Positions 11,076-63,050 of a stretch of 63,050 nt of DNA are shown here, piece after piece. This DNA is from a virus. The translations under genes were made by a program, and so were the position numbers. Each line of letters opens with the position of its first letter. Position 1 is the first letter of the stretch. The notes under the pieces are model-generated. The model ran no database searches, was not told where the DNA came from, and saw nothing but the letters and a program-made list of their open reading frames with translations. Location of the stretch: the IMG/VR virus record IMGVR_UViG_3300043640_000027, positions 1 to 63,050 of that record; one strand, written 5' to 3'.

Positions 11076-11077
11076 CC

Positions 11078-12161: not shown

Positions 12162-12412
12162 TGCGCGGGGCTATCACGTTTCAACCGCTGATTACCGCAG
12201 CAACTAACCATTGCCTGATGGCTGGCATAGTTGAATGTCACGATTGCGGAGATACCAAAACCATGCAGTACGCACTAATGCACGGCTGGAAACAGGTTGA
12301 GCGCGAGCTAGGATCGGACGTGTACATTACCGATTACGTTTGCGATCATTGCTGCGAAGCACGCGTACATGACTATAACCTGATGCTTGAAGAACAGGGG
12401 AATGACCTATGA
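12161..12412 (+). CDS. small Cys-rich (zinc-ribbon-like) protein
   Basis: CHDCGD ... CDHCC motif pairs. TAATG-type coupling on both sides. Confidence 0.6.
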   Translation: MRGAITFQPLITAATNHCLMAGIVECHDCGDTKTMQYALMHGWKQVERELGSDVYITDYVCDHCCEARVHDYNLMLEEQGNDL

Positions 12413-13686: not shown

Positions 13687-13712
13687 CAGGCGTTTGTAGA
13701 ATGTTCTACACT
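13675..13712 (+). promoter_or_regulatory. promoter region (two overlapping sigma70-like candidates)
   Basis: TTGACA (13683-13688), 18 nt, TACACT (13707-13712). Alternatively TTGGCC (13675), 16 nt, TAGAAT (13697-13702). The -35 contains the TGA stop of the amidoligase gene. An 8-bp hairpin at 13712-13738 follows. Confidence 0.4.
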
Positions 13713-13789
13713 AGCCCCGGCCTGATGGTTCGGGGCTAATCACGCGGCACATAAAACCGCACACTTAACGCAGCACGGAGGTTACACCC

Positions 13790-45000: not shown

Positions 45001-46376
45001 GTACCCTCTGGGGCTGCGCCTGCGTTCGCTGGCGGGGTTTCGCCGCCTGTCTGTGTGGGTTCGGGTGCGCTACCCTCTTTGCCGCCCTTGAGGACGTTCC
45101 CACCCTTGCCGCCGAGCAACACCGCCATAGCGGCCTGCAAGCCGATCTGCGTTATACCTAGCGGGCTAGTAAGTGGGTTTTCCACTTTGTTGTTCGGGTT
45201 AACGGCAGCGTCTAAATTCTGCTGCGCTAATGTCTGCGCAGTACCTATGCCCGCGCCTGCTACAGCACGAAGGATCTTACTACCACTGCTTATGCTACCC
45301 GGCATGCCCATAAACGCTAGGTTAGCAGGTAGGTCTACCCCAAACTGCTTTAGTACGTCTGCTTGACTATCGCCGCGATTCTGATTAGCTGTAGCTTGCT
45401 GGTCGGTTATCTTCAATGCCAGCGGGGATTGCTCCGCTACATTAAGTCCGAACTTCGCAAGTTTACTAGCGCCCGCTGCGGCTCCCGGTAGGTTACCTAC
45501 TTTCTTTGTAAGTATCGCCTGCGCCAATAGACCTGCTACATCGCCTGTGACGGCGCCATACGGGTTTGTTTTATACGCATAGTCGGACAGTTGCTTTTGC
45601 ACCCCACCTACACCCGGTACATTACTATTCTTACCCGCCCCTTGTGCTTCTAGTTTAGTCTGTAGGTCTTTATATGCAGGATCGCCATAGTTATGGCCCA
45701 TGATTAGCTTGGCAAAGTCTTGGCCGGCTTGTTGATCTGTCTTGCCAGACGAAATCGTATTTGGGTCTACGCCATACTTAAACAGTGCATCTGATACTGC
45801 GTTAGGAGCATTACCACCTAACGAGGTTAAGCCGCCTAATGCTTTGGCGGCGAATGCTGCGGTTCCCGGCACTACTTGGTTAAATGCTTCTGTACCTGCG
45901 GCACCTAGAAAATTTCCGACGCCATTAGAATGCGCAGCCGCAGCGGCCTGCGCCGCATAACGCTGCTCACGTAGATGCTGCACTTGATTATCGAATGAAG
46001 CCACCTCTGCTTCCACATTGGCTTTCTTGCCCTTGAACTGAGCATTAAGCGCTGGGACGGCATAGTTAGTCTTATAGTCATTCGTAAACTTATCGAATTC
46101 TTCCGGTGTGAGCGGACGACCTAGACCTGTTTCAGCATTCTTTAGTACTGCCAGAAACGGCGGCGGATGTGAACCGGGCGGTAGTGCATCAGGCGCGGTT
46201 GAGGTCTGCGCAGCCGGTTGAGGTGCGTAGTTAACGGGAGCCGGTAAAGTTGGCCCTGTAAACTGTTGCGGCGCGACCTCTTGGTATCCGGCTGGCGCTG
46301 CGAATTGCGTGGGCTGCAACCCCGGCGGCGGTAAACCTGCGGGCGGTACATTAAAACTCTGTAGTCCATCGGCCAT
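39066..46376 (-). CDS. giant virion-associated multidomain protein (2436 aa) with zincin-like HExxH domain and C-terminal TM segments; putative ejected/internal protein
   Basis: Last gene of the structural operon. Pro-rich N-terminus and Gly/Ala-rich region. Internal repeats (KxNIEPVAxP twice; GKITS(R/A)E modules). HEILH at residues 1274-1278 with SNPSEYFAVEG about 85 aa downstream. Hydrophobic segments AAWQGFLGAAGAGLYMAAAAMLG and GLGMPQVMMAPGILMAAV. Confidence 0.6.
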   Translation of the reverse strand: MADGLQSFNVPPAGLPPPGLQPTQFAAPAGYQEVAPQQFTGPTLPAPVNYAPQPAAQTSTAPDALPPGSHPPPFLAVLKNAETGLGRPLTPEEFDKFTNDYKTNYAVPALNAQFKGKKANVEAEVASFDNQVQHLREQRYAAQAAAAAHSNGVGNFLGAAGTEAFNQVVPGTAAFAAKALGGLTSLGGNAPNAVSDALFKYGVDPNTISSGKTDQQAGQDFAKLIMGHNYGDPAYKDLQTKLEAQGAGKNSNVPGVGGVQKQLSDYAYKTNPYGAVTGDVAGLLAQAILTKKVGNLPGAAAGASKLAKFGLNVAEQSPLALKITDQQATANQNRGDSQADVLKQFGVDLPANLAFMGMPGSISSGSKILRAVAGAGIGTAQTLAQQNLDAAVNPNNKVENPLTSPLGITQIGLQAAMAVLLGGKGGNVLKGGKEGSAPEPTQTGGETPPANAGAAPEGTPPTGDGAKPTSTPIDFYQIMLNTAPAEGIETPAFIKLQAAALEKANTAAKKAAVAASIKASNTPEKIAQNAWTLAQRFTGKQWDALSGDQRAQTVDTMAAWLGKKAKVDMESIDAHLQTLRNPAEPTNTAPPITEQPLPSDIQGQQVPDTVPQATAPISEYTPNTKYDALWARATEPTEQGPLSPSLKMLRDAVTAGKITSREQFDGLIDTAASNSAKGNKLKAKTAAKVVAEPIAPSAETTKKAVADTVTEVLADTSTPETQKNKLKATVKQQTEKQYNQAYLKALANRDSAPADASETALRQDPAFNAASEAMRQGKITSAEDVGRFLKEQKGTNTVGDALAGHENKQIGALLGSKSTKSEIVQARKAVRDNLVDPLTKLGEDPAAVKQMTVAQAMTHLQKLANTFNGAETPAPAKKGLGKGKANIEPVANPDETPPTKPKGSKLKKTNIEPVAEPKKTLKRQPKSPKAEAPTDEAGATPLESQLRKRFGSRLPLKRLDSIHDAVSEARMGDSNKLLDEIAGLRANDGEVSEADIKWLKTLGKENPLEDIQNNASGESSASLEAQHRLADEKTSGQTRAIIRRDGSVEPMHGVDAVDTHARAGEVVVQRGVGKDEWTVLSHGDDISREVASGKINRAREELNGVHDEVQKPSFEEAEALNDTSRKSAAKSDLAPDRVAPVQVKRRVGKIVDEVREGADIHETGKKLQRLRDDMEKSTMERRLRDAVRPERRGVEYVRSRLQKMISDNAEGSDHYEAGKFGLWLLEKNPNLANYLALRIRSIGKDGEGAVGQFIPSERLVSINSKNTNTGTAVHEILHSAEQLMPSELQDNIRGEYLGRLQNKYKQVVKSGNKTAQRYIQLAIEGYAHPSAEGQREMSLLMRTQQKDIPYDEYYKYSNPSEYFAVEGTRILEGRYEAGSVRARLQTWMKEFVQHVKSLLGLDSNSAVIKAINDTLKTRGEDYNPKMLASKRKSFNDEKKIDPEQEGEDPSDEALGYETAENSDVDATLQKEAPVVRAKNSNKNLGAITTGQHFIESYASAGHGLEKAVQNARKLGVKITESNDVDRAASAKNGLQSEYNNKDLAEAYAPSENWMYDNQHKFAKNMPEMLTKVNKFFHNTNWLERGYTSWYNESPLGLEGTLDRADVLDSMRSGEISGTEARKQIVALANKHAEYTPEEWMTHEGMPVDTLKAELKKLADESGMDQKSMGDLNKLMDLARARTTERLIAAGKFTADDPYSDYYGWKWQVPLKGSAYGADAANFDMIPTKNIALARLNKQMKAMEGRTSFAERPFARLFADMTRAGSAQADAHLKNTAYELTTDIMDADSKSGYQVHAFEGGYKDGFTNTKTGEQVDRLKAPMNGFIVNDGDTHYVITAPKDSQLMRGLLKLNEVEKPNVVESWLSHPTNGLARLYTTLHPGWQTFSGFVRDLTTIPLTDAVTKHDNPFNSLPTLGKYYGNVLQAYKALPTLLPHLLAHNPKALKALGLKTPREMGEASPDSWAGWTRRFEAAGGANYFTQGFDVAGIERLMQRRLQDVGGVLDAAKWTWQEALEYTGNYANFLEGVGRVALFKTKVEMGVPEREAAVDVRRTLDYSNSGTKGRRINSWLAFFRVGMTSADAMRRAFTKKTGGLDYKKMAAWQGFLGAAGAGLYMAAAAMLGDDELKKVDGNLLTQKMMIPGPDGKIIGINIGLGMPQVMMAPGILMAAVNNGHIKPEEAAKIYMNTLARNGPISPAGNKDNTPTNFLASYILGFTPTIVRPVVDVSRNTTAFDSSIHTETRSGQYPSDAGRANTPRVFKDIAQWLADSTDHKVDYAPEDIRYFAQNYGGQWASDLIRQVAGSRETDAGVADSSRMGGSKVYVDTSHYMQNEMYDTLDQLQDSRRRYSSIVSRAKDNGSSDAQAKAQADQIVSRDPQFKKELLSYRALDNARKAYQQKINELRNNKLMSDTRKQLVRKQLDTQMRAAIEKAQADFPKD

Positions 46377-49590: not shown

Positions 49591-50109
49591 TTAGCCTAGA
49601 AAGTACGGGGCTAGATCGTTCTTTAGTGGTAGGGACTCAATACCCATTAACTGTGGGCCGCCGACTAAATAAAGTACCATGGAGAATATCTCTAGCGCCA
49701 CGATACGTGCTGATCCCATGAGTTTATCGTAGATAGCGTATTCATTCATTTCTTGCCGCTGCACTGCCATATCCACGTAATCTTTATGGGAGTTAAGTAT
49801 AATGGTCAGAACTGGAACTAGTACCGGCGCATTCTTCAACCAAAACTCATTAGCATTTAACGCGTAGGTTAAATCTGTCATAGCCCGAAAGGCTCTACCA
49901 GACTCGGGGTGATTAGCGGCCAGAATGATATTGGCTAGCGATACCCCCACCTCTACCGCGTATAACGCGTAAGCTTTATATCCGGGATTGCCTTCTGAAT
50001 TATCCCCGTCGATATGAAAATGAGCCTTGAAGATATTACGTAGAGCTTCATCAACTACTAGTTGCTGTTTTACTGTTTGTTCGAGTTTAGCCTTCGATTC
50101 TGCGTTCAT
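49591..50109 (-). CDS. hypothetical virion protein
   Basis: 172-aa ORF, ATGA-coupled to the upstream gene. Confidence 0.65.
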   Translation of the reverse strand: MNAESKAKLEQTVKQQLVVDEALRNIFKAHFHIDGDNSEGNPGYKAYALYAVEVGVSLANIILAANHPESGRAFRAMTDLTYALNANEFWLKNAPVLVPVLTIILNSHKDYVDMAVQRQEMNEYAIYDKLMGSARIVALEIFSMVLYLVGGPQLMGIESLPLKNDLAPYFLG

Positions 50110-51914
50110 TGTTCCGTTAATTCCTCAATAGAAGTAGCCATGTGGATTTCATGGACTGTAGCGGTTCCATGCACTTCCACTTCCCATGTTACGCCTACTA
50201 CGGACGGCGGTAAAGCAAAAGGTTTGCTACCCGGCGCATTCGTATCATACACACAGATGCCATCGCAATAGATTTTGAGCCGCACAAACCCATCACAGTC
50301 ATGTACTACTTTAGCAAACGCGAATGTAATCTCACCCGGAAATACATACTTCTTGGATTTCCATACATAACATTGTTTCGGTGAATTGTGGTAACTATCC
50401 TTGCTCACCATGTTAGGGAGCGCCATCGTCCATACAGCATTATTAACCAATACCGCTAACCCATCATTGGTCATGCAATGGCTAGTCACCTTACCGGGCG
50501 GATAATCGAAGGTAGCTAATCTTTGCTCTGGATGACTTCCGTCTAGCGTGCTTCCGGTATCGAACAGATACCCTACGGATAAGTAAACACCATTATCTAC
50601 GGTGGCTGGCGAACAGAACCCGAAATAGGTGCCTCGAAAGTAAGCTGCATAATTGGTGTCTTGGAAACTAAGATCAGTACACTGCTGCGTAGTATCTGCC
50701 GCTGTGTACTTTACATGGTATAGGGGGCGAATGCCATTGGCTACTGACGCCGTTACGACGCGCATGCCTTCCTGCGATAGGGCCACAAGCCCCGCTGCGG
50801 ACGCGTACAGCGCGCCGCCGCCTGTCCGGGTCATAGACCCCGGCAAGCACGCGTAGTCTTCGTGGAACGGCTTAACGCTGATCTGGGCCGATAATGCATC
50901 GCCGGGGGCGACCGCCAGAATGTAGGGGAAATGGTCTGTGCCTACGTAGACGTTATCGTACTGCGCCACTAACCCAGTTATGGTGCCGGGTATAGAGATA
51001 TTATTCTCGGTCGGCCATGCATGCGTCATGTACCGTTCGGACAAACTAATATGCCCATCAGTAGTAGCTACTGCTAGCCAACCGCCTTCTGTAGCCGTTA
51101 GATACTTGTATGTGTACCCATGCGGCGGGTAGAAGTGTCCCGCGAGATAGTTATCCAGTGGTTGTGTTACAGGCGAACCGCCATCTATGTAGACATACTC
51201 ACGGAATACGCCCGCAGAATATGCGACATAATTCTTTAGTTCGGCCAGTAGATACCAATCTGTGTCTAGTGTATTGGCTATTTCTTGCCCTGTCTCTAGC
51301 GCCGAAATACTACGATACAATCTTACATAGCATCGCTCTCGTACAGGAGCATCAGCTATGCGTAAGGTCACATTTGTAGCATCTCCTTCGTAAAGTACCG
51401 CCGAAGGGTCTTGTTCTGGGATTAGCGCTAATGCAGATTCTTCTAATTTACCGTAGTTTTCTCGAACTAATGACGCCGCATACATTCGGCTCACAGGTTT
51501 TATAGAGAAATGTTCTGGGGTATGGGTTATATTAGAGAACGCCGATATTACTGGCGGCGGTACTCCGACCTCTAGAACAGCATCTATCTGAGTATGAGAA
51601 TTCTGGTAGCAGAGATTAGACCTATCGCTATCTACGATAGATGGATTAAGCCCTACAAATGTGCCGGGTACGTACACCGGGGCATCTAGTGCTGTAGCTT
51701 GCTGTAAATTCTTCGATACTATATTAGTACCGTCAAAAATAATAGTGTACCTATTACTAAGCCCACCTTGATTGCTTATCCATTTAGCTAGCGGGCGTAA
51801 GGTGCCGTCCCATAATAGACAGTTATGAGCTACTTGGGCGACGTCTTCTCGACTCAAGCGAGCCGAGACTTCTGTGTTTATTCCGCCGAACTGCTGAATG
51901 CGTACACTTGGCAT
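50106..51914 (-). CDS. large tail/virion structural protein (putative)
   Basis: 602-aa ORF directly after the fibre-like gene. Call by size and position only. Confidence 0.6.
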   Translation of the reverse strand: MPSVRIQQFGGINTEVSARLSREDVAQVAHNCLLWDGTLRPLAKWISNQGGLSNRYTIIFDGTNIVSKNLQQATALDAPVYVPGTFVGLNPSIVDSDRSNLCYQNSHTQIDAVLEVGVPPPVISAFSNITHTPEHFSIKPVSRMYAASLVRENYGKLEESALALIPEQDPSAVLYEGDATNVTLRIADAPVRERCYVRLYRSISALETGQEIANTLDTDWYLLAELKNYVAYSAGVFREYVYIDGGSPVTQPLDNYLAGHFYPPHGYTYKYLTATEGGWLAVATTDGHISLSERYMTHAWPTENNISIPGTITGLVAQYDNVYVGTDHFPYILAVAPGDALSAQISVKPFHEDYACLPGSMTRTGGGALYASAAGLVALSQEGMRVVTASVANGIRPLYHVKYTAADTTQQCTDLSFQDTNYAAYFRGTYFGFCSPATVDNGVYLSVGYLFDTGSTLDGSHPEQRLATFDYPPGKVTSHCMTNDGLAVLVNNAVWTMALPNMVSKDSYHNSPKQCYVWKSKKYVFPGEITFAFAKVVHDCDGFVRLKIYCDGICVYDTNAPGSKPFALPPSVVGVTWEVEVHGTATVHEIHMATSIEELTEQ

Positions 51915-53335
51915 TAGAATATAATCGCGGCTAGATTAGCTGATGTAATCGACGCACCAGATGGGAGCGCTGTAGTAGTGACTGCTATATTTGTAGAGTA
52001 CGCGCCAGAAAGTACAAATACCATAACTTGCTTATTCTGCGTAACAATCTTGGAGCCGTACAATTTAACACCGCTAGACGCAAATACGGCCACACCGAAC
52101 GCTACCGGAGTAAGAGGAGTGGAAGCATCCACCGCTTCCACTTCTGCTACTATCAGAATCTTCTGACTTGCTGTGGTATTAAGTGTTACCGCTGTAGTAG
52201 ACACGGCGTTATTATACAAAGCATCCGCTTCACCATTAGACGACCCCGCTCCTAGCAGCGTAGAACCCGCTCCTGCTAAGGCTTGTACTAACATCTTAGG
52301 TGTTACAGCGGTACTATCATCGGCTGGATTAGGTGCAGCAGAACTGTCTGCGAGCGCTACGATACCTTCAACACCTACGTCTGCATTATTAAGTGTTATT
52401 GTATACGCGGTGCCGGATAGTGTAGCCGAGCCACCATTAGTCAGAGTTAGTGAACCTACCGGCGCATACCCGCCCGTGACTCCTGTTAGCTGACCTTGGG
52501 CATTAAACGTGAATCCACCGTAAGCCCCTGCGGCCACACCTGTATTAGATATAGAGAGCGTTGGGTTAGTATTCGGTGAACCTGTTAGAGATAGACCCGT
52601 GCCAGCATTAACTGTAGTGACTGTGCCCGTACCGCCACCGCCACCACCTGTGATTGTGTAGCCATCTGCCCATGAGCCAGATACGGTTACGCCACCTGTG
52701 CCTTGAAAGGACGGCGATGGTAGTGTTAATGTTAGAGTCTCTGCGGATATGCTAGCTTGCAGAATGGAACTTACGACAACTACCTGATTAACTCCACTTC
52801 CGCTAGTACCACCGCCTCCACCGCAGCACCCACTATCCCCCGCCCCTTCGTAGGCGAAGTTTAGGTTAGGCCATACTCCTTGTATACTTATACCATCGGA
52901 GCCGGTAAAATTGGGTGGTGTTACGGTTGCGATATATGTAGTAACGCCCCCTGACGTAGAAGCTTGCGTAGTAACCAGTCCTTGTCCGACCACGTTCACG
53001 TCTACGGTAGCAGGGGTAGCGGCTATTAAATCCTGTATGGCTTGTGCGCCGAAATGATCGTATAGTACTGTATCAACGGCGCTAAATGTCTTAGCTGTCG
53101 AGCCAGACTGCGCGCGAGTTACTACCAAATACGTAGTTTGGGTATTAATTACTTTAACTTCTTCCGAATATATATCATTCGTAATAGTTAGATACGTCCA
53201 GTCTCCCGCGCCGAAGTTTAGATTAGCGGTTACATTGGATAGCGTATCCGCATCTACGGGTATAAGAGTAGTGGCCGCCGAAATATCAGCAGTCAATAAA
53301 CCATTAATTTTGGTATACAGAATCTTAAGAGCCAT
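51914..53335 (-). CDS. tail fibre-like protein carrying the shared N-terminal module
   Basis: The N-terminal ~170 aa are paralogous to 56080..56634, 58252..59205 and 59189..59677, and end in SGCCGGGGG. Gly/Thr/Ser-rich repetitive C-terminal part with poly-Gly runs. Confidence 0.65.
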   Translation of the reverse strand: MALKILYTKINGLLTADISAATTLIPVDADTLSNVTANLNFGAGDWTYLTITNDIYSEEVKVINTQTTYLVVTRAQSGSTAKTFSAVDTVLYDHFGAQAIQDLIAATPATVDVNVVGQGLVTTQASTSGGVTTYIATVTPPNFTGSDGISIQGVWPNLNFAYEGAGDSGCCGGGGGTSGSGVNQVVVVSSILQASISAETLTLTLPSPSFQGTGGVTVSGSWADGYTITGGGGGGTGTVTTVNAGTGLSLTGSPNTNPTLSISNTGVAAGAYGGFTFNAQGQLTGVTGGYAPVGSLTLTNGGSATLSGTAYTITLNNADVGVEGIVALADSSAAPNPADDSTAVTPKMLVQALAGAGSTLLGAGSSNGEADALYNNAVSTTAVTLNTTASQKILIVAEVEAVDASTPLTPVAFGVAVFASSGVKLYGSKIVTQNKQVMVFVLSGAYSTNIAVTTTALPSGASITSANLAAIIF

Positions 53336-53351
53336 GGCTATTCCTAACTAC

Positions 53352-53558
53352 TCAGTTAAATGATATTTGACCCTGCGATCCACCGCCGCCCCCGCCGCTA
53401 GCAGGCATGATACCTATACCTATAGCTTTTGCAGCCAAATCACTAAATAGTGAAGTTACAGCCGCAGTCTTCATAAGAGTAGACGCATTTTTAGGTGCGA
53501 ACCCAGAATTAGCGAAGTCTACTAATAGCTTAGGAACTGGTATGACTATGACTGCCAT
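53352..53558 (-). CDS. hypothetical small protein
   Basis: 68-aa ORF with a GGGGGGS run; stop/start coupling. Confidence 0.5.
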   Translation of the reverse strand: MAVIVIPVPKLLVDFANSGFAPKNASTLMKTAAVTSLFSDLAAKAIGIGIMPASGGGGGGSQGQISFN

Positions 53559-54472
53559 TACTGAAACTTCATAAGTAGAGAATATAGGGTGTTATTGGGT
53601 AGTGCTGCCCCCATCGCCCCGCTGCCGATCATTATATAGTCCTGCGCCGCTCCCACTACTGCGGTGTGCGCTGTCGCTCCCTGCGCTGTTTCCGCTATCA
53701 AACCCTGTATAGCCCAATTAACTGGGGTTATTAGCGGTAGACACGCAAAACACGGGAATACTTGAATATCCCCACTAGGTATTGCGGTAGCGGTTAATGC
53801 ATATGGCGCTAACGAGAAATAAGAAGTGGTACTGTAAGCCACTCCTGTATCTGTGTTCATGCAATACATGACCCACGGATTATTCTGCGGTGTACCGAAC
53901 GCCGCAGTGTTCTTTAGGAAACAGTACCCACCACCTATATAATTTCCGCTGCTATCCGAAGGCCGTCCGATCATAAATGCTGCGTTCGGCCATGAGCCGC
54001 CATTGTACGCACTAACGCCTTCCAGTTTATGTACTACCCCCAAATAACTCCCGTCGAAACAGAAGTAGGATTGATAGGGCGTACTTGTTGAGCGTATGCC
54101 GCCAGCGGCTCTATCGTAAGGATTCATCGGGGTACGTGCAGATAGATTGCCGCCTAAAACCCCCGCTCCACTTGTGGTTGTTCCTACAGTTATCCATATA
54201 TTAGGTTGTGCGACAACCGGACCTGAACCGTACTCTATCTTTATAAATATAGGGTACGTGGATTGTAAGGCATCAGTAAACTTATAAATCTCATACCCCG
54301 CAGCGGTGTTAACTACTGTGGGACGTAAAACTGTAGTCCAATTAATCTGACCTGTATCTGTTGTTTGAGAAAGCCCACACGCCTGTAGCGCAGTAGAGAA
54401 CTCAAGTCCCCACGTCCTAAAATCTGCGTCTGTAGTATTGGCGAACACGGTAGAGAAGTTTTGAGTAGCCAT
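53558..54472 (-). CDS. hypothetical tail/receptor-binding-like protein (tandem paralogue 2)
   Basis: The N-terminal ~90 aa closely match 54474..55415 (e.g. TDTGQINWTTVLRP, AAGYEIYKFTDALQ). Confidence 0.65.
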   Translation of the reverse strand: MATQNFSTVFANTTDADFRTWGLEFSTALQACGLSQTTDTGQINWTTVLRPTVVNTAAGYEIYKFTDALQSTYPIFIKIEYGSGPVVAQPNIWITVGTTTSGAGVLGGNLSARTPMNPYDRAAGGIRSTSTPYQSYFCFDGSYLGVVHKLEGVSAYNGGSWPNAAFMIGRPSDSSGNYIGGGYCFLKNTAAFGTPQNNPWVMYCMNTDTGVAYSTTSYFSLAPYALTATAIPSGDIQVFPCFACLPLITPVNWAIQGLIAETAQGATAHTAVVGAAQDYIMIGSGAMGAALPNNTLYSLLMKFQ

Positions 54473-54473
54473 A

Positions 54474-55415
54474 TTATTCCCACAACATTAGCATGGAGTA
54501 GTTATTATTGGACGGTAGTCCCCATCCAGCCGATGCCGAACCTGTCATTAAATACGTATGCGAAGCCGACCCTACAGGAGTGGCTTTTATAGTTACACCT
54601 AAAGGTAATTCTGCGTTTAACCCATACAGTAACCACTGATTAGGGGATACTTCTGGGTATACTCCGTAAGTAGGGAACACCTGAAACTGTGCCCCACCTA
54701 CTGCGGAAGTAGTCATTTGGTATGGCACCCAACTAAAATATCCGCCTGCTTGAGAGTACATTATACCAGTTACTGTATTTATACAGAAAGTCTGCGCTAC
54801 ATCGAAGAATGTGGATGCTGGGTTAGTAGCGTCTTGCATACACGCCATTATCTTGCCGCCTATATACGCCCCAGTATTATCTACTGCGCGTCCTATAGTA
54901 AACATGGTGCTCCCGCCTACTTGACTAGAGTACGTATTATACAGCCCACCTACCTTTAATGCGACGCCCAAAAAACTTCCATTGAAACTTACGAATGTGG
55001 GGTACGACACGGTGTTATATCCTATGACCCGCGCGTTCTGTCCTCCCGCATTGCACATTATCTGTATCCGTGTAGTAAGCACGCCTGTTAATGTGCCTGC
55101 TCCATTCGAGCCTTGCCCTATAGTTAGCCATAGCGCTGGGCTATCGAAATTTGTATGCGTACTACCTGTACCGTACTCTAGTTTTACGAATATGGGGAAG
55201 GTAGCTTGTAGTGCATCGGTAAACTTGTAAATCTCGTATCCCGCAGCAACGTTATTTCCGGCAGGACGTAATACCGTAGTCCAATTAATCTGTCCTGTAT
55301 CTGCGGTCTGTAAAAGCCCGCAAGTCTGCATAGATGCAGAAAGCGCTGAACCCCACGCTCTAAATTCTGCGTCTGTTGTATGTGACCATGCGGTAGAATA
55401 GATAGCTGTGGTCAT
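54474..55415 (-). CDS. hypothetical tail/receptor-binding-like protein (tandem paralogue 1)
   Basis: 313 aa, collinear paralogue of 53558..54472. Confidence 0.65.
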   Translation of the reverse strand: MTTAIYSTAWSHTTDAEFRAWGSALSASMQTCGLLQTADTGQINWTTVLRPAGNNVAAGYEIYKFTDALQATFPIFVKLEYGTGSTHTNFDSPALWLTIGQGSNGAGTLTGVLTTRIQIMCNAGGQNARVIGYNTVSYPTFVSFNGSFLGVALKVGGLYNTYSSQVGGSTMFTIGRAVDNTGAYIGGKIMACMQDATNPASTFFDVAQTFCINTVTGIMYSQAGGYFSWVPYQMTTSAVGGAQFQVFPTYGVYPEVSPNQWLLYGLNAELPLGVTIKATPVGSASHTYLMTGSASAGWGLPSNNNYSMLMLWE

Positions 55416-56080
55416 ACCCTTTTCCCAAAAAGCGCTAAGTTAAACCATGTAGCCGTACTAGCAGATTTAATCACAATTTCTACGAGTGCGCCTCTCGGAA
55501 TGTTTACACTGTCCCAAGTAGACAAATTTATCGAAGAGTTGTAGGTTGACCCAGCTATAGTGGGAAAGTTTCCGGCACCTACTATAGTCGATGTAGCGCT
55601 ACCTAGTGTTCCTACTTTCACGTCTACAACTACTGACCCAGATGGATCGCACTGTATACTCCATCCTGTCAATTGGTACGCTGCGGTGGATATTCCCGTT
55701 ATACCGTCGCCGGACTTTAATTCCGCGCCGCCTACTGATCCATACGAAGCATTTATTCCCCCTGCTACTGGTGTAGTGGAAGTGTAGATAGGAGCTTCTG
55801 GATTGGTATTATCTATGGTTAAATTATTACCCGCTACAGGGACTGGTACAGATACTTTAGGGTTATTAACATCGGAGGCATCTACGACTACCCCACCTGT
55901 TCCAGCTACTATAGTTTGCACCGATTGGCGTAAAGCTATGTCGGCTACTTTGGCCGCTGTACTTTGTTGGCTAGCACCTGCGCCCGTACCGGCTTGTATC
56001 TCAACCAGTTCTGTGCCCACTAACTCACTAGGGCCGGGAGGCAAGTCCGATATTAATTTTACTGTTGTGGGGTCGGCCAT
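55412..56080 (-). CDS. tail fibre-like protein (putative)
   Basis: 222 aa, Gly/Thr/Ser/Val-rich and beta-rich in composition; coupled within the tail gene block. Confidence 0.55.
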   Translation of the reverse strand: MADPTTVKLISDLPPGPSELVGTELVEIQAGTGAGASQQSTAAKVADIALRQSVQTIVAGTGGVVVDASDVNNPKVSVPVPVAGNNLTIDNTNPEAPIYTSTTPVAGGINASYGSVGGAELKSGDGITGISTAAYQLTGWSIQCDPSGSVVVDVKVGTLGSATSTIVGAGNFPTIAGSTYNSSINLSTWDSVNIPRGALVEIVIKSASTATWFNLALFGKRV

Positions 56081-56634
56081 TAAATATATCCCCTATAACT
56101 TCCATCGGTAGTTACTCGATAGTAGCCTTCGGTTACGATTCTTAGATCAAAGTATGAAAGTGGTATAGGTGGAGGTTCAGAAGACGCGGCGCATCCAGCA
56201 TTATCAGGTATATCCTGTATTAGCCACTTGCTGCCGTTCCCTTCTACGCTTATGCCACCTATACCAGCTAACCGGAAATTTGCGTACCCTAGAACACCGT
56301 CGCTATTTACTATGGGGTATTGGGCATCTATGATTACTTCCGTGTAAACTACAGCGTCTTCTATTTCTGCACTTGTCAACCTGTATCCTATGCGGGTTCC
56401 ACTAGGCCATGTTTTGCGTTCTGTGCCGTCTACTCCGCGTACTACCAGCGCAAGATTAGGCGCTTGCACGGATTGTACTCTAACCACTTCCCGCTTGTCT
56501 ATTACTAGATAACAGTAATCGCTGTCTAGCAGATTAGATATATAGGCCCATGTAGCAGGATCGAGCGCTAAAGTATTATCCTTAGCACTCACTAGACTAA
56601 CTACGGTTCCGGCTGCTAAGTATGCGCGTTTCAC
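56080..56634 (-). CDS. protein carrying the shared fibre-anchor-like module
   Basis: 184 aa. Motifs DYCYLVI, EVVRV, RGVDGT and WPSGTRIGYRLT are shared with three other ORFs. GCA replaces GCC at the module end. Confidence 0.6.
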   Translation of the reverse strand: MKRAYLAAGTVVSLVSAKDNTLALDPATWAYISNLLDSDYCYLVIDKREVVRVQSVQAPNLALVVRGVDGTERKTWPSGTRIGYRLTSAEIEDAVVYTEVIIDAQYPIVNSDGVLGYANFRLAGIGGISVEGNGSKWLIQDIPDNAGCAASSEPPPIPLSYFDLRIVTEGYYRVTTDGSYRGYI

Positions 56635-57221
56635 AATTGATCTGTCTGTAGTTTTATTTGGAGCCTATTTATCCCATTCATATCTACGCGTACCAATGTG
56701 CCTCCTACACTCTCCCTAAGTAGAAGTTCCGCTGTATACCTGTCTCGCTGTCTACGGTGGTACAGACTACCGTTACGCGTGTATAGTAGCAGAATATCCG
56801 AATTAACAATCTCCCAAGCTCTGCGGTCATCTAGGCACACTCTACAGGATGTAACCGCCGTGGGCAAGTCACTTATAACCATACGGCCCACTAATGGGTC
56901 GAACCACCAGTAGTGCCATTGGTTTGCATAACTATACGCCAAGAATGGATTCATATTCTGGTCGAATGTGCCGACTATTTCCTGTACTACTCCGCCTACT
57001 TGAAGTAATTGTATTCGTCCAGAAGTATTTGGCGCCGAGACATATATAGTATCCTCTATAGCTTCGAATACCCACAATTGGTACTCTAATCCTTTAGTAG
57101 TATTGTTAAGTGCTATCCCACCTATCTCGTAGTCCATTAGGGCAGTAGGGTCTGGTTGGGCTACCCCCTTCCACATATAGTAGACTACTACTTGTGAAAG
57201 GGAGTTATTAGGCATAGCCAT
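56631..57221 (-). CDS. hypothetical virion protein
   Basis: Start chosen at ATG 57221, overlapping the upstream stop (TAATG). The track start 57320 would overlap the upstream gene by 100 nt. Confidence 0.55.
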   Translation of the reverse strand: MAMPNNSLSQVVVYYMWKGVAQPDPTALMDYEIGGIALNNTTKGLEYQLWVFEAIEDTIYVSAPNTSGRIQLLQVGGVVQEIVGTFDQNMNPFLAYSYANQWHYWWFDPLVGRMVISDLPTAVTSCRVCLDDRRAWEIVNSDILLLYTRNGSLYHRRQRDRYTAELLLRESVGGTLVRVDMNGINRLQIKLQTDQL

Positions 57222-58252
57222 TATGGGTATCGCCCCCACGAACACCGGAAGTTGCATTGCAGTTGTTGCCCCAGTGTTTTTATGATCGGGGCGCTTAGCA
57301 ACCCGAACTGATACGCCCACATATGGTACGAAAAAGTAAACGACGCTATCGTCCCTGTCCCATTATTAGTGGGGAACGTACCTTTTATATCTATGTAGCA
57401 TGTACCAGAATTAGATAGGTCATTTACAAACTGTATTATAGGTATTGAATATATGTTGCTATTTATACTACCTAGTTGCCCCGTAGGACTTCCACTCAGC
57501 GCGGGTACTATGGCGCCGGAATATAGGGTGATAAGTTTGTATCCTGCTTTAGTATTTCCTGTATTCGCTAATTGTTGGGTCGCCTGCCATAGACGGTATG
57601 TGCCCGTTATCGGACTGCCGTTCAAGTTAAAGCTAAACGCGTGATCTGTAACGTCTAAATACCAACGTAGTTCCCACGTGACTGTTAGAATCTCGTCACT
57701 AAGTACGGTAATAGCTGTGGGGTTCCCTGCATCGTCTAGTATTAATGCGCGGCTAAACAAGTCAGAACTAGCCGATGCGCCGCCCGGATAGGTGCCGACT
57801 TCGGTTAGGTTGCCCGCTGCCGCGCCTGTACCGAACTGGTAGTTGTATCGGGCATACCAGTAAGCTGGATCGCCTCCCGCCGCTGCCACGTAGCCCGCTG
57901 ACGACTTGCCGGGGTATCCGCCAGTGCCACCGCCCGTAGAACTAGAAACGGCGGCTCTAAAAGCCGCTAATTGCACGTCTGTAGTTAGCGGGGTTGTATT
58001 GCCTGTACCTACACAGCAATTAGACGCTATGTCACCAGTGTCGTCGAAAGACCCCGCGTGTGGTAAACTATACCATTCTACTAGACCCCTATCCGTGATG
58101 ATATTCTTAAACCACCCGGTATCTTTAGTTACTTCCATAGTTTCCGCTTTGCGTACTTTCGCACGGTAGTACCCTGCTGCACCAGCATGCATGTGCAAGG
58201 TGTTTTCCGGTATCCGCAGAGACTTCCTTTGGGGTAGTATGATTCTTCCCAT
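57221..58252 (-). CDS. hypothetical tail protein
   Basis: 343-aa ORF with TAATG coupling to the upstream gene. Confidence 0.6.
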   Translation of the reverse strand: MGRIILPQRKSLRIPENTLHMHAGAAGYYRAKVRKAETMEVTKDTGWFKNIITDRGLVEWYSLPHAGSFDDTGDIASNCCVGTGNTTPLTTDVQLAAFRAAVSSSTGGGTGGYPGKSSAGYVAAAGGDPAYWYARYNYQFGTGAAAGNLTEVGTYPGGASASSDLFSRALILDDAGNPTAITVLSDEILTVTWELRWYLDVTDHAFSFNLNGSPITGTYRLWQATQQLANTGNTKAGYKLITLYSGAIVPALSGSPTGQLGSINSNIYSIPIIQFVNDLSNSGTCYIDIKGTFPTNNGTGTIASFTFSYHMWAYQFGLLSAPIIKTLGQQLQCNFRCSWGRYP

Positions 58253-59205
58253 TATGATAACGTCCAGTCTAGTAATTTTATTGTGGGGAGTACGTACTTA
58301 TCTAGTGCGCGTGGGTAATCTACTTGCCCACCGAACATTAGCATTTCCAGTGGATACGCCCCTCTCGCTATGTACTTCTCTGGAGGAGCTGTAAAATCTG
58401 CTTCCCCGCCAAACTTATACCAATCGTCGAATACCCCGACCCCTATATCCTGCGATATGTACTTTTCCGTAGGGGCTGTAAAAGATGTTTCACTACCGTA
58501 GTTCTCCCAATCCAGCAACCCTACTCCGTGACTGACATACTTATCTAGTATAGATGGTTGTACTAGAAGCCACCAATCAGAATTAAAGTATATCGGCGGT
58601 ATCGGATTTCCTAATCTATCTTTTGGGTTAGGAGTTACTAACTCTATTACTTCTTGGGGGTACAGCATACTAGTTAAGTAGAAGAACGGGCCGGGTATAA
58701 AAGGTGCGCCAGTTACTCCCCCATCGCAGCACCCAAACATACCTATTTTATCGAATATAACTAATTCGTTCCCTTCTGTTCTAGCCTCTATTCCACCTAC
58801 GGTATCCGCGTGTATAGCGTCTGCGCCGATAGTCCAATTACCATTACCCCCGGATACGTTCGCGAATCCATACCCACTAGCGTATATATTATAGTTGGCT
58901 GCTGTAGTAGCGTCTTGGATTTCTACGCCAGTTAATCTGTAGACTATCCTAGTGCCTGTAGGAAAACCCTGCGTACAAGTGCCATCTTGTCCTCTGTCTA
59001 CTCTAAATCCCGAGTAGTCCTTGCGTATTTTGATTACTTCTAGAACGCATTCGTTAACTAGAGTAAGGTAGCAATGGTCGCCCAACCCTAGAGTGTCTAG
59101 TAAGTCAGCAATATCTCCATCTACTGCCACGTCTTCGGACGCCTTGCTTAGAGGCGCTAATAGTATTCCATTAGCTAGATATAGTCTCTTAATCACAACA
59201 GCCAC
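58252..59205 (-). CDS. tail fibre-like protein carrying the shared N-terminal module
   Basis: 317 aa. Motifs DHCYLTL, LEVIKI, RGQDGT and FPTGTRIVYRLT, with the module ending in FGCCDGG. Confidence 0.65.
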   Translation of the reverse strand: MAVVIKRLYLANGILLAPLSKASEDVAVDGDIADLLDTLGLGDHCYLTLVNECVLEVIKIRKDYSGFRVDRGQDGTCTQGFPTGTRIVYRLTGVEIQDATTAANYNIYASGYGFANVSGGNGNWTIGADAIHADTVGGIEARTEGNELVIFDKIGMFGCCDGGVTGAPFIPGPFFYLTSMLYPQEVIELVTPNPKDRLGNPIPPIYFNSDWWLLVQPSILDKYVSHGVGLLDWENYGSETSFTAPTEKYISQDIGVGVFDDWYKFGGEADFTAPPEKYIARGAYPLEMLMFGGQVDYPRALDKYVLPTIKLLDWTLS

Positions 59206-59677
59206 TTACCAATGGTGCGGATAGCACAAAGTTAGGGAACCCCCCACCCACTAAAACTTTATCCGACTCAGACACTATGGTTACCGGGGGCGCGTAGATA
59301 CTGTAACTAGTATCGGAAGTCTTGGTAACTTCTATTATACCTGTGCCGGTTAATGTTATCTGGCCTAGCATGCGGTCATTAATCATATCTGCGATGGCTT
59401 GATCCCCCATCACAAATTCTACAGTAGTACCTGATGGAAACGCCTGTTCTACAGTACCATCTTGCTCACGTATGATTGCTACATTGTTACCGATAAACCC
59501 ATTGGTGCGCACAATCTCATAAGCTGTAGCGGTCTTGATTATTAGATATGTGTAATCTGAACCTTTCAGGCCCAAGCGTAGTTTCCCTAGCAGTTCGTCG
59601 TCTACAGTAATTGCCGTAGCAAAGTCTGTTAGTGACGTCGCTAACTCCCCGCAAAGTCCGTATAAACTCTTAAACAT
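59189..59677 (-). CDS. stand-alone copy of the shared fibre-anchor-like module
   Basis: 162 aa. Motifs DYTYLII, YEIVRT, REQDGT and FPSGTTVEF. The protein ends exactly at SGCCD. Confidence 0.6.
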   Translation of the reverse strand: MFKSLYGLCGELATSLTDFATAITVDDELLGKLRLGLKGSDYTYLIIKTATAYEIVRTNGFIGNNVAIIREQDGTVEQAFPSGTTVEFVMGDQAIADMINDRMLGQITLTGTGIIEVTKTSDTSYSIYAPPVTIVSESDKVLVGGGFPNFVLSAPLVSGCCD

Positions 59678-60107
59678 TTGCGCTACCTGCTATACTTGGA
59701 TCATTCTTATTGTACACTAGGTACGAACAAGATATGTACGTACCTTTGTAGTAGAAGTCTGCCCTATACCATCCACCGTGCATATTAAACAGTGTATCAT
59801 CGAATACGAAAGTGAATCGGTTTTTCTTTTGGTCTACTGGTGTGAAATCTACGGGATTAATCGGTGCGCTCGCTCCACCATTGCCCCCCGAATAGTATGG
59901 CGGTATGTTATACTGCGACGTATAATCTGGCGGCATATTTAGCGAAGTAGGGTCAGGCGGTATATCTGTACCATTAGTATTCTTCCATACGCGGTATATC
60001 TGCAACTTGGTGTCTCCGGTCGTAGTGATCGAAGACAAGTCAGCATTAGATACTGCAATATAGAAAAATGGACTCTTCTTACACACGATGGGGTATGGGT
60101 TCTTCAC
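59670..60107 (-). CDS. hypothetical virion protein
   Basis: 145-aa ORF, coupled. Confidence 0.6.
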   Translation of the reverse strand: MKNPYPIVCKKSPFFYIAVSNADLSSITTTGDTKLQIYRVWKNTNGTDIPPDPTSLNMPPDYTSQYNIPPYYSGGNGGASAPINPVDFTPVDQKKNRFTFVFDDTLFNMHGGWYRADFYYKGTYISCSYLVYNKNDPSIAGSANV

Positions 60108-60742
60108 AGTATTCGCACCGGCTTCATAGAGTTACTATCTACCTTACGATTAGACACTGATAACGCACGCGCAGATAGCAGCATGCGTTCGTAGTCTAGT
60201 TCATACTTCCTAGCCAGATTTGGGTTAGTCCATTCTTTGTTAGGTAGGCACAATAAGTCCGCTACTACTCCGCGCCCTATTTTCTGCCCGAACGGGGTTG
60301 ATATGCTGCGAGGCATGTAGCTTATGCAGTCTTTAGGTATCAGGGTTACATAAACCTTTAGCCCGTCCTTCTGGTCTACGCTTGGTATCTGGCGCAGCCG
60401 AATGCAGTTATTGTCTACTACATCGAACTGGGTTTTCCACCCAACACGTTCATAGCCGTACCAGTAGTACCCATATCGACCCCCCTCTATGCCTACTATA
60501 GAGTATATCTCGTGGTCATCTGGTGCAGTTAGATAGTAGTCTGGTACGCCCGACTGGTAATCCTGAGTTATCTCACAGCACAAGATTCGAGTACGCCGCG
60601 CAAAGTCTATATACTTCTGGCGTAGTAAATCCAGCGCCATAGCCTGCGGTATTTTAGGTACGAACGGAAGTACGTGCCTAAGCATATTATGCAATGGCAC
60701 GCTATCTTGGTAATCTACCGATGTAACATTAGGCGTACTCAC
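60104..60742 (-). CDS. hypothetical virion protein
   Basis: 212-aa ORF, ATGA-coupled. Confidence 0.65.
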   Translation of the reverse strand: MSTPNVTSVDYQDSVPLHNMLRHVLPFVPKIPQAMALDLLRQKYIDFARRTRILCCEITQDYQSGVPDYYLTAPDDHEIYSIVGIEGGRYGYYWYGYERVGWKTQFDVVDNNCIRLRQIPSVDQKDGLKVYVTLIPKDCISYMPRSISTPFGQKIGRGVVADLLCLPNKEWTNPNLARKYELDYERMLLSARALSVSNRKVDSNSMKPVRIL

Positions 60743-61446
60743 GGGCCTGCTCTCCGGTCACCATCGCCTATCTTGCCTTGGTAGTAACCCGATCCATAGC
60801 GAGAAGACTGCTTATAATTAATACCTAGCACGGAATAGAACAATCGTAGGTGTTCGCGACTCTCTGTTTGCGAACTTACCGATTCCATATTAAGTGACTT
60901 AGCCTTACCTAATATAAAGTCCATCAAAGCATTTATATATTTGGGCGGTATGTTGTGGGCTGTATCCCAATCTGATAACGTGAACTGTAGTGCCGCACCA
61001 TCTGTGGTCGCCCACACTGTCGGAGCCATACCCATCGGAACGGGCGGCTCTACGATAAAAGCTCTGGGGTTTTCTTTGCGTATCGCATAGGATACTGCCC
61101 GATATACTGGCGATCCATTTACGAACGAAATATCTGCCGGACAAATATCATAGACAGCAAAACTCTCTGACAATTCTTGATCCATCACTGTCAGAGGCGA
61201 ACCGTCTTTATTATTAGTGACGGAGATTATATTATTAATGGTATCTACACTTTGCTCACGCCCCGGCTTTAGCGTTACTTCTGTACTTTTGGTAAAGTCG
61301 TCTGGGAAATATGTGCATATCTCCGACAGTCCAAGATTCATGTAATCCAAAAGCAAGCCGCGCCCCCAACGAGTGAAGGCGCGGCCATAACGCTGGTCAT
61401 TAAGCTGGGTAGATGCGTGAGTAAGATACTGACCAACTGTATTCAT
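60739..61446 (-). CDS. hypothetical virion protein (head-tail joining region)
   Basis: 235-aa ORF, ATGA-coupled downstream. Confidence 0.65.
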   Translation of the reverse strand: MNTVGQYLTHASTQLNDQRYGRAFTRWGRGLLLDYMNLGLSEICTYFPDDFTKSTEVTLKPGREQSVDTINNIISVTNNKDGSPLTVMDQELSESFAVYDICPADISFVNGSPVYRAVSYAIRKENPRAFIVEPPVPMGMAPTVWATTDGAALQFTLSDWDTAHNIPPKYINALMDFILGKAKSLNMESVSSQTESREHLRLFYSVLGINYKQSSRYGSGYYQGKIGDGDRRAGP

Positions 61447-62279: not shown

Positions 62280-63050
62280 TTAGGCTGTGGCGAAGGTAGC
62301 GTACAAGTGAACCAGTGCGTCCGGGTACAGAACCTTGAAGCCGTACACCGAAAGACCCTGATAGTAGTTCGCCCAATCGTCTTTATCGGTAACGACGCGG
62401 CTATCTTCGATCTGTGCCGCGAAGGCCGTAGCCATCTTGACACCGGCGACGATATGGTACGCACGAACTGCCCCGTCCATTACGCTAGGTACGTTCTGCG
62501 ATTCCAAGATGATAAAGCCGGCAACATCGCCCTGTAGCTTACCATTAATCATCGGGGTGCTATTTAGCCCGGTCGCGTAGGCTAGACGTAGTTCGCTATT
62601 CTTTAGCACTGTAAGTGCCGCCGACGGAAGTACGATGAATCGACCTTCACGCGGGGCCAGTGCTTCGTCTAGCACCTGCCAAATCTGCGACAGTACCAGT
62701 ACGGCGTTAGCCGAAGTAACCGCAACCGGGGTGCCAGTGACGCCCAAGTTGATATTCTTCGATACTAGACCTGCGGTTGCGCCCTGATTATACGCAGCGA
62801 CATTTGTCCACATTTCTGTGAGTAACTGCGGATCAATGGCGCGCGTCAGTTCATAGCCCGCAGACTTAAGGAAGGCAGCCTTCCAACGGTCGAAGTTCTG
62901 AATCTGGCGTTCGTCGATATGGTTCATCTTAATTGAGAACGTCTTGGCGTAATCAATCGTCATCGTCACGGGTTCACCATCAATGGTGTCGTGGATGATC
63001 TTACCATTCTTATCGTAGTCCCGCACAACTACCTTCGGTTCACGCATGAA
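62280..63050 (-). CDS. major capsid protein, 3' part (upstream part is at 1..292 through the circular junction)
   Basis: The frame stays open to the window end. 62924-63050 duplicates 1-127. The track ORF start (M at 63047) is an internal Met of the joined 311-aa product. Confidence 0.75.
   Translation of the reverse strand, partial: FMREPKVVVRDYDKNGKIIHDTIDGEPVTMTIDYAKTFSIKMNHIDERQIQNFDRWKAAFLKSAGYELTRAIDPQLLTEMWTNVAAYNQGATAGLVSKNINLGVTGTPVAVTSANAVLVLSQIWQVLDEALAPREGRFIVLPSAALTVLKNSELRLAYATGLNSTPMINGKLQGDVAGFIILESQNVPSVMDGAVRAYHIVAGVKMATAFAAQIEDSRVVTDKDDWANYYQGLSVYGFKVLYPDALVHLYATFATA
62924..63050. repeat. 127-bp exact duplicate of bases 1-127 (circular-contig overlap)
   Basis: Base-by-base identical (TCATCTTAATTGAGAACG...CGGTTCACGCATGAA). 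Lies inside the capsid coding sequence. Confidence 0.95.

Follow-up and report, generated by a model that had tools for sequence, protein, structure and literature searches.

Why does a phage encode four proteins that begin alike, one of which is nothing but the shared beginning? This question is raised by IMGVR_UViG_3300043640_000027, a viral sequence of 63,050 nucleotides (nt) that was analyzed over its full length and is called the window here. Four of its open reading frames (ORFs) start with a common N-terminal module of 150 to 170 amino acids (aa), and we refer to their products as A, B, C, and D:

59189..59677, minus strand: A, 162 aa, module only
58252..59205, minus strand: B, 317 aa
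56080..56634, minus strand: C, 184 aa
51914..53335, minus strand: D, 473 aa

The four are ancient, conserved paralogs of a tail-fiber anchor protein and, by homology alone, would be virion proteins. The explanation that we judge best overall, and consider fairly probable, is that these docking-anchor paralogs have divided labor among themselves and that a vicinal cysteine pair (CC) at the end of the module forms an interchain disulfide knot.

The preliminary description of this DNA, which had been made from the sequence alone, held that the four ORFs have homologous N termini, and its coordinates and lengths are exact. The homology is significant by BLASTP between A and B (E = 7e-07, residues 1–97), B and C (2e-17, residues 5–177, Cys included), and A and D (6e-06, residues 2–150). 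Profile–profile comparison of orthologue alignments, one for each class, gave significant matches in six of six pairings both for the N-terminal ~100 aa (E between 5e-22 and 2e-39) and for a second subdomain of ~60 aa that includes the Cys (7e-06 to 1e-17). Since both halves are homologous in all pairings, the entire module is homologous and not only its start. In a four-way alignment, the invariant columns (A numbering) include K3, Y6, G10, D26, D41, Y44, L45, E54, R70, G74, I95, D97, G159, and C160. These columns match the motif list drawn up in the preliminary description, of which one element has to be amended, since D has FSAVDT in place of (F/W)P(S/T)GT. The docking domains of the paralogs, i.e., their first ~100 residues, are only 22–33% identical to each other. 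A recent duplication or gene conversion was considered and rejected because of this divergence and because orthologs within each class are far closer.

What the first ~100 residues might do is indicated by their matches. We searched the PDB with a profile of the four modules and used AlphaFold2 models of A and D in Foldseek. The profile matched one sequence only, 8jov_1, a "putative tail fiber protein" (E = 4.6e-06, module positions 9–110), for which the N-terminal 116 residues of the phage GP4 tail fiber are modeled, in 18 chains of the portal–tail complex. A tblastn search with this segment identified its source as a 439-aa GP4 tail fiber and found the same domain in 131 phage records, from many hosts. 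In both A and D, residues 1–100 are predicted with a local distance difference test score (pLDDT) above 90, and the best PDB match in Foldseek is 8jov_1 for each, with target-normalized TM scores (TMt) of 0.67 and 0.66 over the 116 modeled residues and root-mean-square deviations of 3.1 and 2.9 Å, respectively (E = 2e-04 for the N terminus of D). Weaker Foldseek matches are to N-terminal regions of tailspikes and of baseplate or tail-tip proteins, and matches in BFVD are tail fibers of GP4-like, Bcep22-like, and many uncultured phages. PHROG 8469 ("tail fiber protein") matches B (E = 1.4e-07, residues 11–104), A (7e-05), and C (1.6e-04), and the tail-fiber family PHROG 6427 matches these three proteins over the same residues; D alone has no PHROG match and is tied to A, B, and C by the profile–profile comparison. 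No Pfam family matches A–D at E ≤ 0.1, including PF03906, the N-terminal domain of T7 gp17, and a Pfam scan of all ten tail-region proteins gave nothing significant. A hidden Markov model (HMM) of the module matches all four fiber genes of phage BcepIL02 and both fiber genes of GP4, with E values from 1e-9 to 1e-11. In the window, the genes with this domain sit in the tail operon, downstream of the adaptors and upstream of a homologous nozzle gene. On the basis of sequence and predicted fold, residues 1–100 are thus assigned as a β-barrel tail-docking domain, homologous to the nozzle-bound N terminus of the GP4 fiber. By analogy, A–D would dock on the tail body as trimers, and the same reasoning suggests where they would do so.

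The second part of the module leads to the Cys. The relevant features of the four proteins are as follows:

59378-59677, minus strand: A docking domain, residues 1–100
59192-59377, minus strand: A two-repeat β segment, residues 101–162, with Cys codons at 59195-59200; ends G-C-C-D-stop
58726-58731, minus strand: Cys codons of B, whose module (residues 1–160) is followed by GAP-x-IPGP-FFYLTS and four ~28-aa (D/E)KY(V/I) repeats
56191-56193, minus strand: single Cys codon of C, whose module (residues 1–148) ends G-C-A and is followed by a PPPIPLSYF motif and a short YRVTxDGxYR tail
within 51914..53335, minus strand: D docking domain, residues 1–105
52823-52828, minus strand: Cys codons of D, whose β segment (residues 106–171) ends SGCC

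When the codons were checked, the module was found to end in SGCCD-stop in A, FGCCDGG in B, AGCAAS in C, and SGCCGGGGG in D, at Cys 160, 159, 148, and 170, respectively. It had been read correctly from the start that three of the modules end in G-C-C and the fourth in GCA and that the 162-aa protein is the module alone, with its stop right after CCD. In A, the segment consists of two ~23-aa repeats, ...ITGxGIVTVTKxGxNxYxISAP / ISITSESDKVLVGGEFPNFVLSAP, followed by LVSGCCD. In D, the Cys is followed by a second, degenerate copy of this segment, and most D-type matches correspondingly show two matched stretches. AlphaFold2 monomer models give this segment a pLDDT below 60 in A (residues 105–162) and of 75–81 in D, and such a poor monomer prediction is expected for an intertwined trimeric β shaft. 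An HMM of module residues ~100–170 found no match in GP4 or BcepIL02 proteins. The view of the whole module as a common docking adaptor therefore has to be narrowed: residues 1–100 are a generic docking adaptor, while residues ~100–165 with the CC are a shaft segment specific to this clade.

How well is the Cys node conserved? When 1.84 billion cluster representatives were searched exhaustively with a profile, there were 3849 matches at E ≤ 1e-3 and 204 at E ≤ 1e-10, the best 150 of which fall into four length classes that correspond to A, C, B, and D. We counted Cys in proteins matching across the whole module, taken as 90%-identity clusters and 50%-identity representatives:

A-type, 155–177 aa: CC in 75/82
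B-type, 290–331 aa: CC in 31/33 (GCC)
C-type, 178–192 aa: 6 with CC, 5 with CxC, 6 with a single Cys
D-type, 430–552 aa: CC in 29/34

Among the 50%-identity representatives, both Cys columns are among the ~10 most conserved of A and B, with the node Gly conserved at 86–100% and the Cys at 90–100%, versus 24–57% for the flanks. In the C-type, the first Cys is 94% conserved, and the second position is variable. The CC of A-type proteins always lies within the last 1–3 residues, 75 of the 82 ending in CC plus 0–3 residues. There are exceptions. We label the related contigs that were compared L001–L021 (L006 being GP4 and L007 BcepIL02), and in the lineage L001/L013/L015, A ends in ...SAPVIS without Cys, there is one Cys each in B and C, and CC is intact in D; about five A-sized representatives stop short of the motif (e.g., ...FPNFILK-stop). 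These findings show that the CC is under strong purifying selection and is sited where the shared module ends, which bears out the preliminary description on conservation of the motif in homologs. A literature search pairing tail fibers with vicinal cysteines found no description of such a G-C-C node. Prenylation of a C-terminal CC, as in Rab proteins, or another acylation was considered and rejected, since B, C, and D continue beyond the motif and bacteria have no such machinery. We know of no acylation machinery of this kind in phage hosts, and the acylation site offered as an option in the preliminary description found no evidence in its favor.

Which of the four proteins form the core of the system? 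Among the representatives, A is the most widespread class (42), followed by D (35), B (21), and C (17). In L018 (62 kb, positions 10001-13782) and in L019–L021, the gene right behind the A-type gene is a D-type gene, B, C, and the cassette being absent. This adjacency and the class counts point to A and D as the core, to which the block from B to C looks like an addition. A, as the most widespread class, is not a truncation. A frameshift fusion of A to B was considered and rejected, because B has its own complete module and because the length of A and its C-terminal CC are conserved. In L018, the nozzle homolog is seemingly split into ORFs of 439 and 178 aa.

D has the architecture of a full fiber. 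Beyond its module, it comprises the following:

residues 164–182: poly-Gly/Ser hinge, pLDDT <50
residues ~193–224: degenerate second copy of the β segment, then a β-rich shaft
51917-52228, minus strand: C-terminal jelly-roll knob, residues ~370–473, pLDDT ~95

Foldseek matches of the knob, which are weak (E = 0.004–0.07), are to trimeric jelly rolls of the TNF/C1q type (GITRL, 4-1BBL, a TNF-like lectin, the BclA head, and the C1q head), and the knob is also weakly similar to carbohydrate-binding modules. These fold matches support the prediction that D is a homotrimeric, complete fiber with a binding knob.

B is followed by two genes of a different kind, both for conserved proteins:

57221..58252, minus strand: 343-aa fiber component, PHROG 4176 (E = 8e-53), without the module
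56631..57320, minus strand: fiber component, ORF of 229 aa, PHROG 4950 (E = 4.6e-45)

The ORF of B may alternatively start at a GTG at 59196, with an 8-nt overlap with the stop of A (GTGATTAA). The PHROG 4176 protein has homologs in 125 phage records, such as gp52 of Pradovirus f30-Xaj, and no match among PDB sequences. The PHROG 4950 protein is 35% identical to f30-Xaj gp51 (E = 3e-29); its 229-aa ORF has a GTG start and a 100-nt overlap with the upstream gene, and its true start is probably the internal MAMPNN, since orthologs are 194–195 aa long and begin at the equivalent point. In f30-Xaj, the order gp53-gp52-gp51 places the 4176/4950 pair right after the first tail-fiber gene. Podophages of Xanthomonas, Stenotrophomonas, Xylella, and Pseudomonas share the pair (window 56631-58252, minus strand; L016 1306-2804), which resembles a mobile unit of two distal-fiber genes that combines with different anchors. 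The gene order suggests that B and the two proteins make up one composite fiber, in which the PHROG 4176 protein would be the distal partner of B.

C precedes a group of genes that differ between contigs. The order conserved among related contigs is adaptor, 212-aa protein, small protein, A, B, 4176, 4950, C, cassette, D, and nozzle, and in the window, the cassette comprises the following:

53352..56080, minus strand: variable cassette of 222-, 313-, and 304-aa proteins and a 68-aa ORF, without the module
53352-53558, minus strand: 68-aa Gly-rich ORF, a putative gene, ending SGGGGGGSQGQISFN, between the cassette and D

The first gene encodes the 222-aa protein, which has a conserved N-terminal xxDLPxxxxLxGxELxEIQ peptide. 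The first cassette gene products of the window, L001, L004, L008, and L013 all share an xxDLPxxxxLxGxExxExQ start and then diverge, a pattern that marks exchangeable receptor-binding proteins fitting onto a partner that is itself conserved. The 313- and 304-aa proteins (53558-55415, minus strand) are adjacent paralogs, 43% identical (E = 2e-77), with no Pfam or PHROG match. The cassette is replaced by a single 355-aa gene in L001 and, in L004, by a gene for a 193-aa protein and one for an 867-aa Laminin_G_3 protein. L013 (8943-11468) has a 222+313+305-aa cassette as in the window, yet its A is only 57% identical, which argues for cassette exchange between lineages. The cassette genes are thus likely to encode hypervariable receptor-binding proteins, and C would be a short adaptor for the cassette encoded immediately downstream. 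It had been proposed that the module is fused to alternative heads. This has to be corrected: the distal parts of B, C, and D belong to the conserved core of the clade and are not swappable heads, and it is the genes from C to D, which do not have the module, that are hypervariable.

What kind of virus carries this system? Positions 1-127 and 62924-63050 of the window are identical (127 nt), so the window is a circular assembly of ~62.9 kb. Its main landmarks, and the tail genes that flank A–D, are as follows:

62280-63047, continuing at the window start: major capsid gene, spanning the circular junction
60739-61446, minus strand: SU10-type adaptor, 235 aa
60104-60742, minus strand: second adaptor-like protein, 212 aa
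59670-60107, minus strand: small protein, 145 aa, just before A
50106-51914, minus strand: nozzle protein, 602 aa, directly downstream of D
39066-46376, minus strand: giant protein, 2436 aa
20464-24247, plus strand: five tRNA genes (Ala-TGC, Thr-TGT, Leu-TAG, Met-CAT, and Leu-TAA)

The window also encodes an SU10-type portal, a family A DNA polymerase, an SNF2 helicase, and a DUF927 protein that is probably a primase–helicase. The SU10-type adaptor matches PHROG 399, the adaptor region also has a match to PHROG 437, orthologs of the adaptor match PF24175 (SU10_adaptor), and the two adaptor proteins resemble the 220- and 206-aa proteins of GP4. The 145-aa gene occupies the same slot as a 93-aa gene that precedes the fiber genes in GP4. 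Among PDB sequences, the nozzle protein matches 8jov_A (E = 1.2e-07), a 577-aa protein present in six chains at the nozzle position of Ralstonia phage GP4; directly compared, it matches the 577-aa GP4 protein at 2.4e-11 and BcepIL02 gp63 at 9e-11. Since the nozzle and both adaptor-region proteins match their GP4 and BcepIL02 counterparts, we take the tail to be distantly related to the GP4/Bcep22 type. Neither a nucleotide search with positions 51000-60000 nor a tblastn search with B found a match in 50,697 phage records; the clade has no close cultured relative. The virus that carries this system is an uncultured podophage, in which a tail of this distant kinship is combined with a portal and an adaptor of the SU10 type. 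The nozzle protein would be the docking partner of at least D. It has 11 Cys, seven of which are kept in the three of three orthologs compared, and no conserved Cys was found in the adaptors, the 145-aa protein, or the PHROG 4176 and 4950 proteins. Given the Cys-rich nozzle, disulfides or metal sites may be a wider theme of this tail. The sole match of the 2436-aa protein is Pfam LPD38 (residues 2134–2299), and it has no PHROG match; its place in the genome equals that of the giant DarB-like virion protein of GP4- and Bcep22-like phages.

How might these parts work together? In the mechanism that we propose, the ~100-aa β barrel of each paralog would dock a trimer onto the tail body; the ~60-aa segment that comes next, made of two β-hairpin-like repeats, ends in the G-C-C. 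D would be a self-contained, nozzle-proximal fiber with a jelly-roll knob, B the proximal part of a composite fiber completed by the PHROG 4176 and 4950 proteins, and C a short stub bearing the exchangeable receptor-binding cassette. A would be a head-less stub, the ancestral partner of D, with docking sites of its own and a role as a structural collar or strut rather than as a receptor binder. The divergence of the docking domains would be sufficient for separate docking sites, and in an SU10-type tail, fibers dock at two levels, the adaptor and the nozzle, each of which has six sites (PMC9509320). Three chains would place six Cys on the trimer axis, either at the chain end (A) or at a Gly/Pro-rich hinge (B, C, and D), and oxidation of these six Cys after lysis would create an interchain disulfide knot that keeps the short shaft from fraying. 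A disulfide knot is favored by the conservation of the CC versus its variable flanks and by its position in D, directly before the poly-Gly/Ser region of low pLDDT.

A comparable device is found in type III collagen, where a C-terminal GPCCG forms a cystine knot with six Cys from three chains. As in collagen III, a Gly and two adjacent Cys stand before a flexible region, and the rod end that they would close is here predicted to be trimeric. The two differ in that the preceding 60 aa of the module have no Gly-X-Y periodicity, being β-strand repeats, and that some of the paralogs have one Cys or CxC; the disulfides are putative here, and there is no evolutionary relationship. Putative disulfide rings have been reported in the connector of phage Bas63 (PMC12609058).

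Several points weigh against this mechanism. The trimeric state, the docking sites, and the pairings of B with the 4176/4950 proteins and of C with the cassette are drawn from gene order and analogy. The C-terminal half of B has no significant similarity to f30-Xaj gp53, the first pradovirus fiber, which leaves gene order as the ground for pairing B with the 4176/4950 proteins, and the fold matches of the D knob have the weak E values given above. Many C-type proteins, as well as B and C of one lineage, have a single Cys. This amounts to three Cys per homotrimer, which could not be fully disulfide bonded and would fit a Cys3 metal site better. The loss of Cys from A in one lineage, together with the short A-sized relatives, implies that the knot would be dispensable in some backgrounds. 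Finally, since there is no Gly-X-Y helix, the analogy with collagen III can be functional only.

The main rival, which we treat as a tentative but serious alternative, is that the Cys form a metal site on the trimer axis, with Cys3 per layer and two layers where CC is present. A single Cys after Gly is near-universal in B, C, and D; many C-type and some D-type proteins have another residue in place of the second Cys or have that Cys displaced (CxC), and one Cys per chain is a natural trigonal site and an odd number for disulfides. Assembly also takes place in a reducing cytoplasm. In the paralogs of GP4 (L006 6572-7459) and BcepIL02 (L007 11589-13378), it is HxH-rich repeats (HNHGVSDPGHAHGVSDP...) and not Cys that follow the docking domain. 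HxH repeats bind iron on the fiber axis in the T4 gp37 tip, and a Cys site would be a counterpart to the His-metal sites by which other phage fibers are made rigid. However, the geometry of two adjacent Cys in the same chain is ill suited to binding a single ion, it is CC rather than a single Cys that is conserved in A, B, and D, and no other ligands (His or Asp) are conserved nearby.

The preliminary description had suggested that A is a head-less copy that could cap or compete for docking sites. As a trimer on the sites of the full fibers, A would then tune the numbers of the different fibers per virion. A role as docking-site competitor is conceivable, and we consider it unlikely. It agrees with A having a complete docking domain and nothing distal, with the overlap of the A stop and the B start, which suggests coupled expression, and with the presence of four paralogs, more than the six nozzle sites seen for the GP4 fiber (18 chains, 8JOV) would accommodate. 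Against it, A is the most widespread class and stands beside D in lineages with one full fiber and no B or C, where there would be little to regulate; the docking domains are different enough for distinct sites, and an SU10-type tail has at least two docking levels.

Rather unlikely, in our estimation, is a covalent or metal coupling of the paralogs through CC, either with A linked to D (and to B and C where present) or in mixed trimers that fill three nonequivalent positions. If true, it would make a covalently branched fiber hub of subfunctionalized paralogs, an architecture that is not known to have been described for phage tails. We regard it as improbable that the paralogs co-assemble, with CC joining different chains (A with D, or A:B:C) into a branched fiber. 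In favor of this, the shared module ends exactly at the CC in every class; the lineage whose A is without both Cys also lacks the second Cys of B, with the CC of D retained; and adding up the Cys of A, B, and C gives an even number (2 or 6) for four of the five lineages that were compared. Moreover, the chains of a docked fiber trimer are in nonequivalent environments in PhiXacm4-11, which could favor subfunctionalized paralogs. These points are countered by the shaft and knob of D, which need three D chains, by module lengths that differ between the classes (as the Cys positions do), and by the occurrence of A with D alone in several lineages. In addition, the Cys co-loss is a single event, since L001, L013, and L015 are one lineage, and the A:B:C total of the window itself is odd (5). 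An obligatory A:B:C heterotrimer was rejected, because A is found with D alone in L018–L021. Very improbable is that A is absent from the virion and serves as an assembly factor, either templating docking-domain trimerization of D, B, or C or transiently masking docking sites: A is small, without a distal domain, and phage fiber genes are often accompanied by small assembly chaperones, but these are usually encoded downstream of the fiber and act on C-terminal domains, whereas A lies inside the structural operon between tail-body and fiber genes and keeps its docking domain and CC under the same constraints as the structural paralogs.

How does the system compare with known tails? In T7-like phages, small proteins that are little more than a docking domain carry receptor binders that lack this domain and have a short conserved N-terminal docking peptide, as in the SP6/K1-5 adaptor and KP32-type anchor-branch tailspikes. 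These roles would here fall to A and C (A being module-only and C almost so) as anchors and to the cassette proteins with their conserved N-peptide; the docking domain is a different one, given that PF03906 is not matched. No Pfam or PHROG match to a T4 gp10-like branching domain was found in the tail-region proteins. In GP4, the 439-aa tail fiber (8JOV chain 1), which we take to be the "fibre III" of Zheng et al. 2023, has the same ~100-aa domain, and its gene lies just upstream of the homologous nozzle gene. Attachment of fibre III to the nozzle is taken from the contents of the PDB entry and from passages in two secondary descriptions (PMC11445570, PMC12609058). GP4 has two domain-bearing genes, of 439 and 295 aa, whose products are 47% identical over residues 2–103, compared with four here; it has no second β segment or Cys node after the domain and no module-only gene, and its genome as a whole is very dissimilar to the window, without a match at the nucleotide level. 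The C-terminal part of the 295-aa protein (L006 6572-7459) matches PDB 8kec ("Long tail fiber") and 6ov6; PDB sequence searches found no entry for this paralog itself and no match for the 568-aa protein of GP4.

BcepIL02 (Lessievirus) is likewise a podophage of ~60 kb with a giant virion protein, and its gp58, gp59, gp61, and gp62 all begin with the same domain and precede the nozzle gene. The multi-fiber frame proposed in the preliminary description is thereby borne out, GP4 having two and BcepIL02 four fiber genes with the domain just upstream of the nozzle gene. BcepIL02 differs from our system in that these are four full-length fibers of 292–339 aa with collar and HxH-repeat regions, none of them module-only and none with a conserved Cys after the domain. 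Bcep22-like phages have been described as having "3-4 tail fiber proteins" before the nozzle homolog (PMC9144972), and we found no discussion of a shared N terminus of these fibers in the literature searched. The SU10-type portal and adaptor families are shared with Escherichia phage SU10, which has long and short tail fibers, but the nozzle is unrelated in sequence and PDB searches found no similarity of the module to SU10 fiber proteins. The docking domain and the multi-fiber arrangement are thus already known, from GP4 and Bcep22-like phages; what is new is that the module extends to a conserved G-C-C node, that one conserved paralog consists of the module only, and that the uncultured clade is of this size.

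How widespread is this system? The 204 cluster representatives at E ≤ 1e-10 define a large, diverse clade of uncultured podophages, the tail of which has between two and four paralogous anchors that descend from the fiber docking domain of the GP4/Bcep22 type. Nearly complete genomes are present in samples such as ERZ27251300, SRR30199787, and IMG 3300025233. A locus search of IMG/VR with a narrower alignment gave eight related loci, while no related locus was found in GTDB species genomes and none at the nucleotide level in INPHARED. Setting conserved anchoring (A, B, C, and D) apart from the exchangeable cassette should help in genome annotation and in predicting host-range determinants, and a conserved anchor-only protein raises the structural question of which docking sites A takes in this tail type. 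A cystine knot, if true, would be a simple natural staple for trimeric β fibers, with possible use in stable fiber or tailspike fusions, and a Cys-metal site, if true, would extend the His-metal theme of phage fibers. Among distant relatives returned by the profile search, P0146, P0157, and P0198 have Cys-rich motifs (such as VCxMDCCP) directly behind the docking domain. One type is a tandem, in which a single protein of ~214 aa has two docking domains, the one with VCAIDNC... and the other with VCQMDCCP-stop behind it, and another distant relative has VCETDCCPAAC right behind a single docking domain. Cys clusters thus recur at the exit of the docking domain, with variable spacing.

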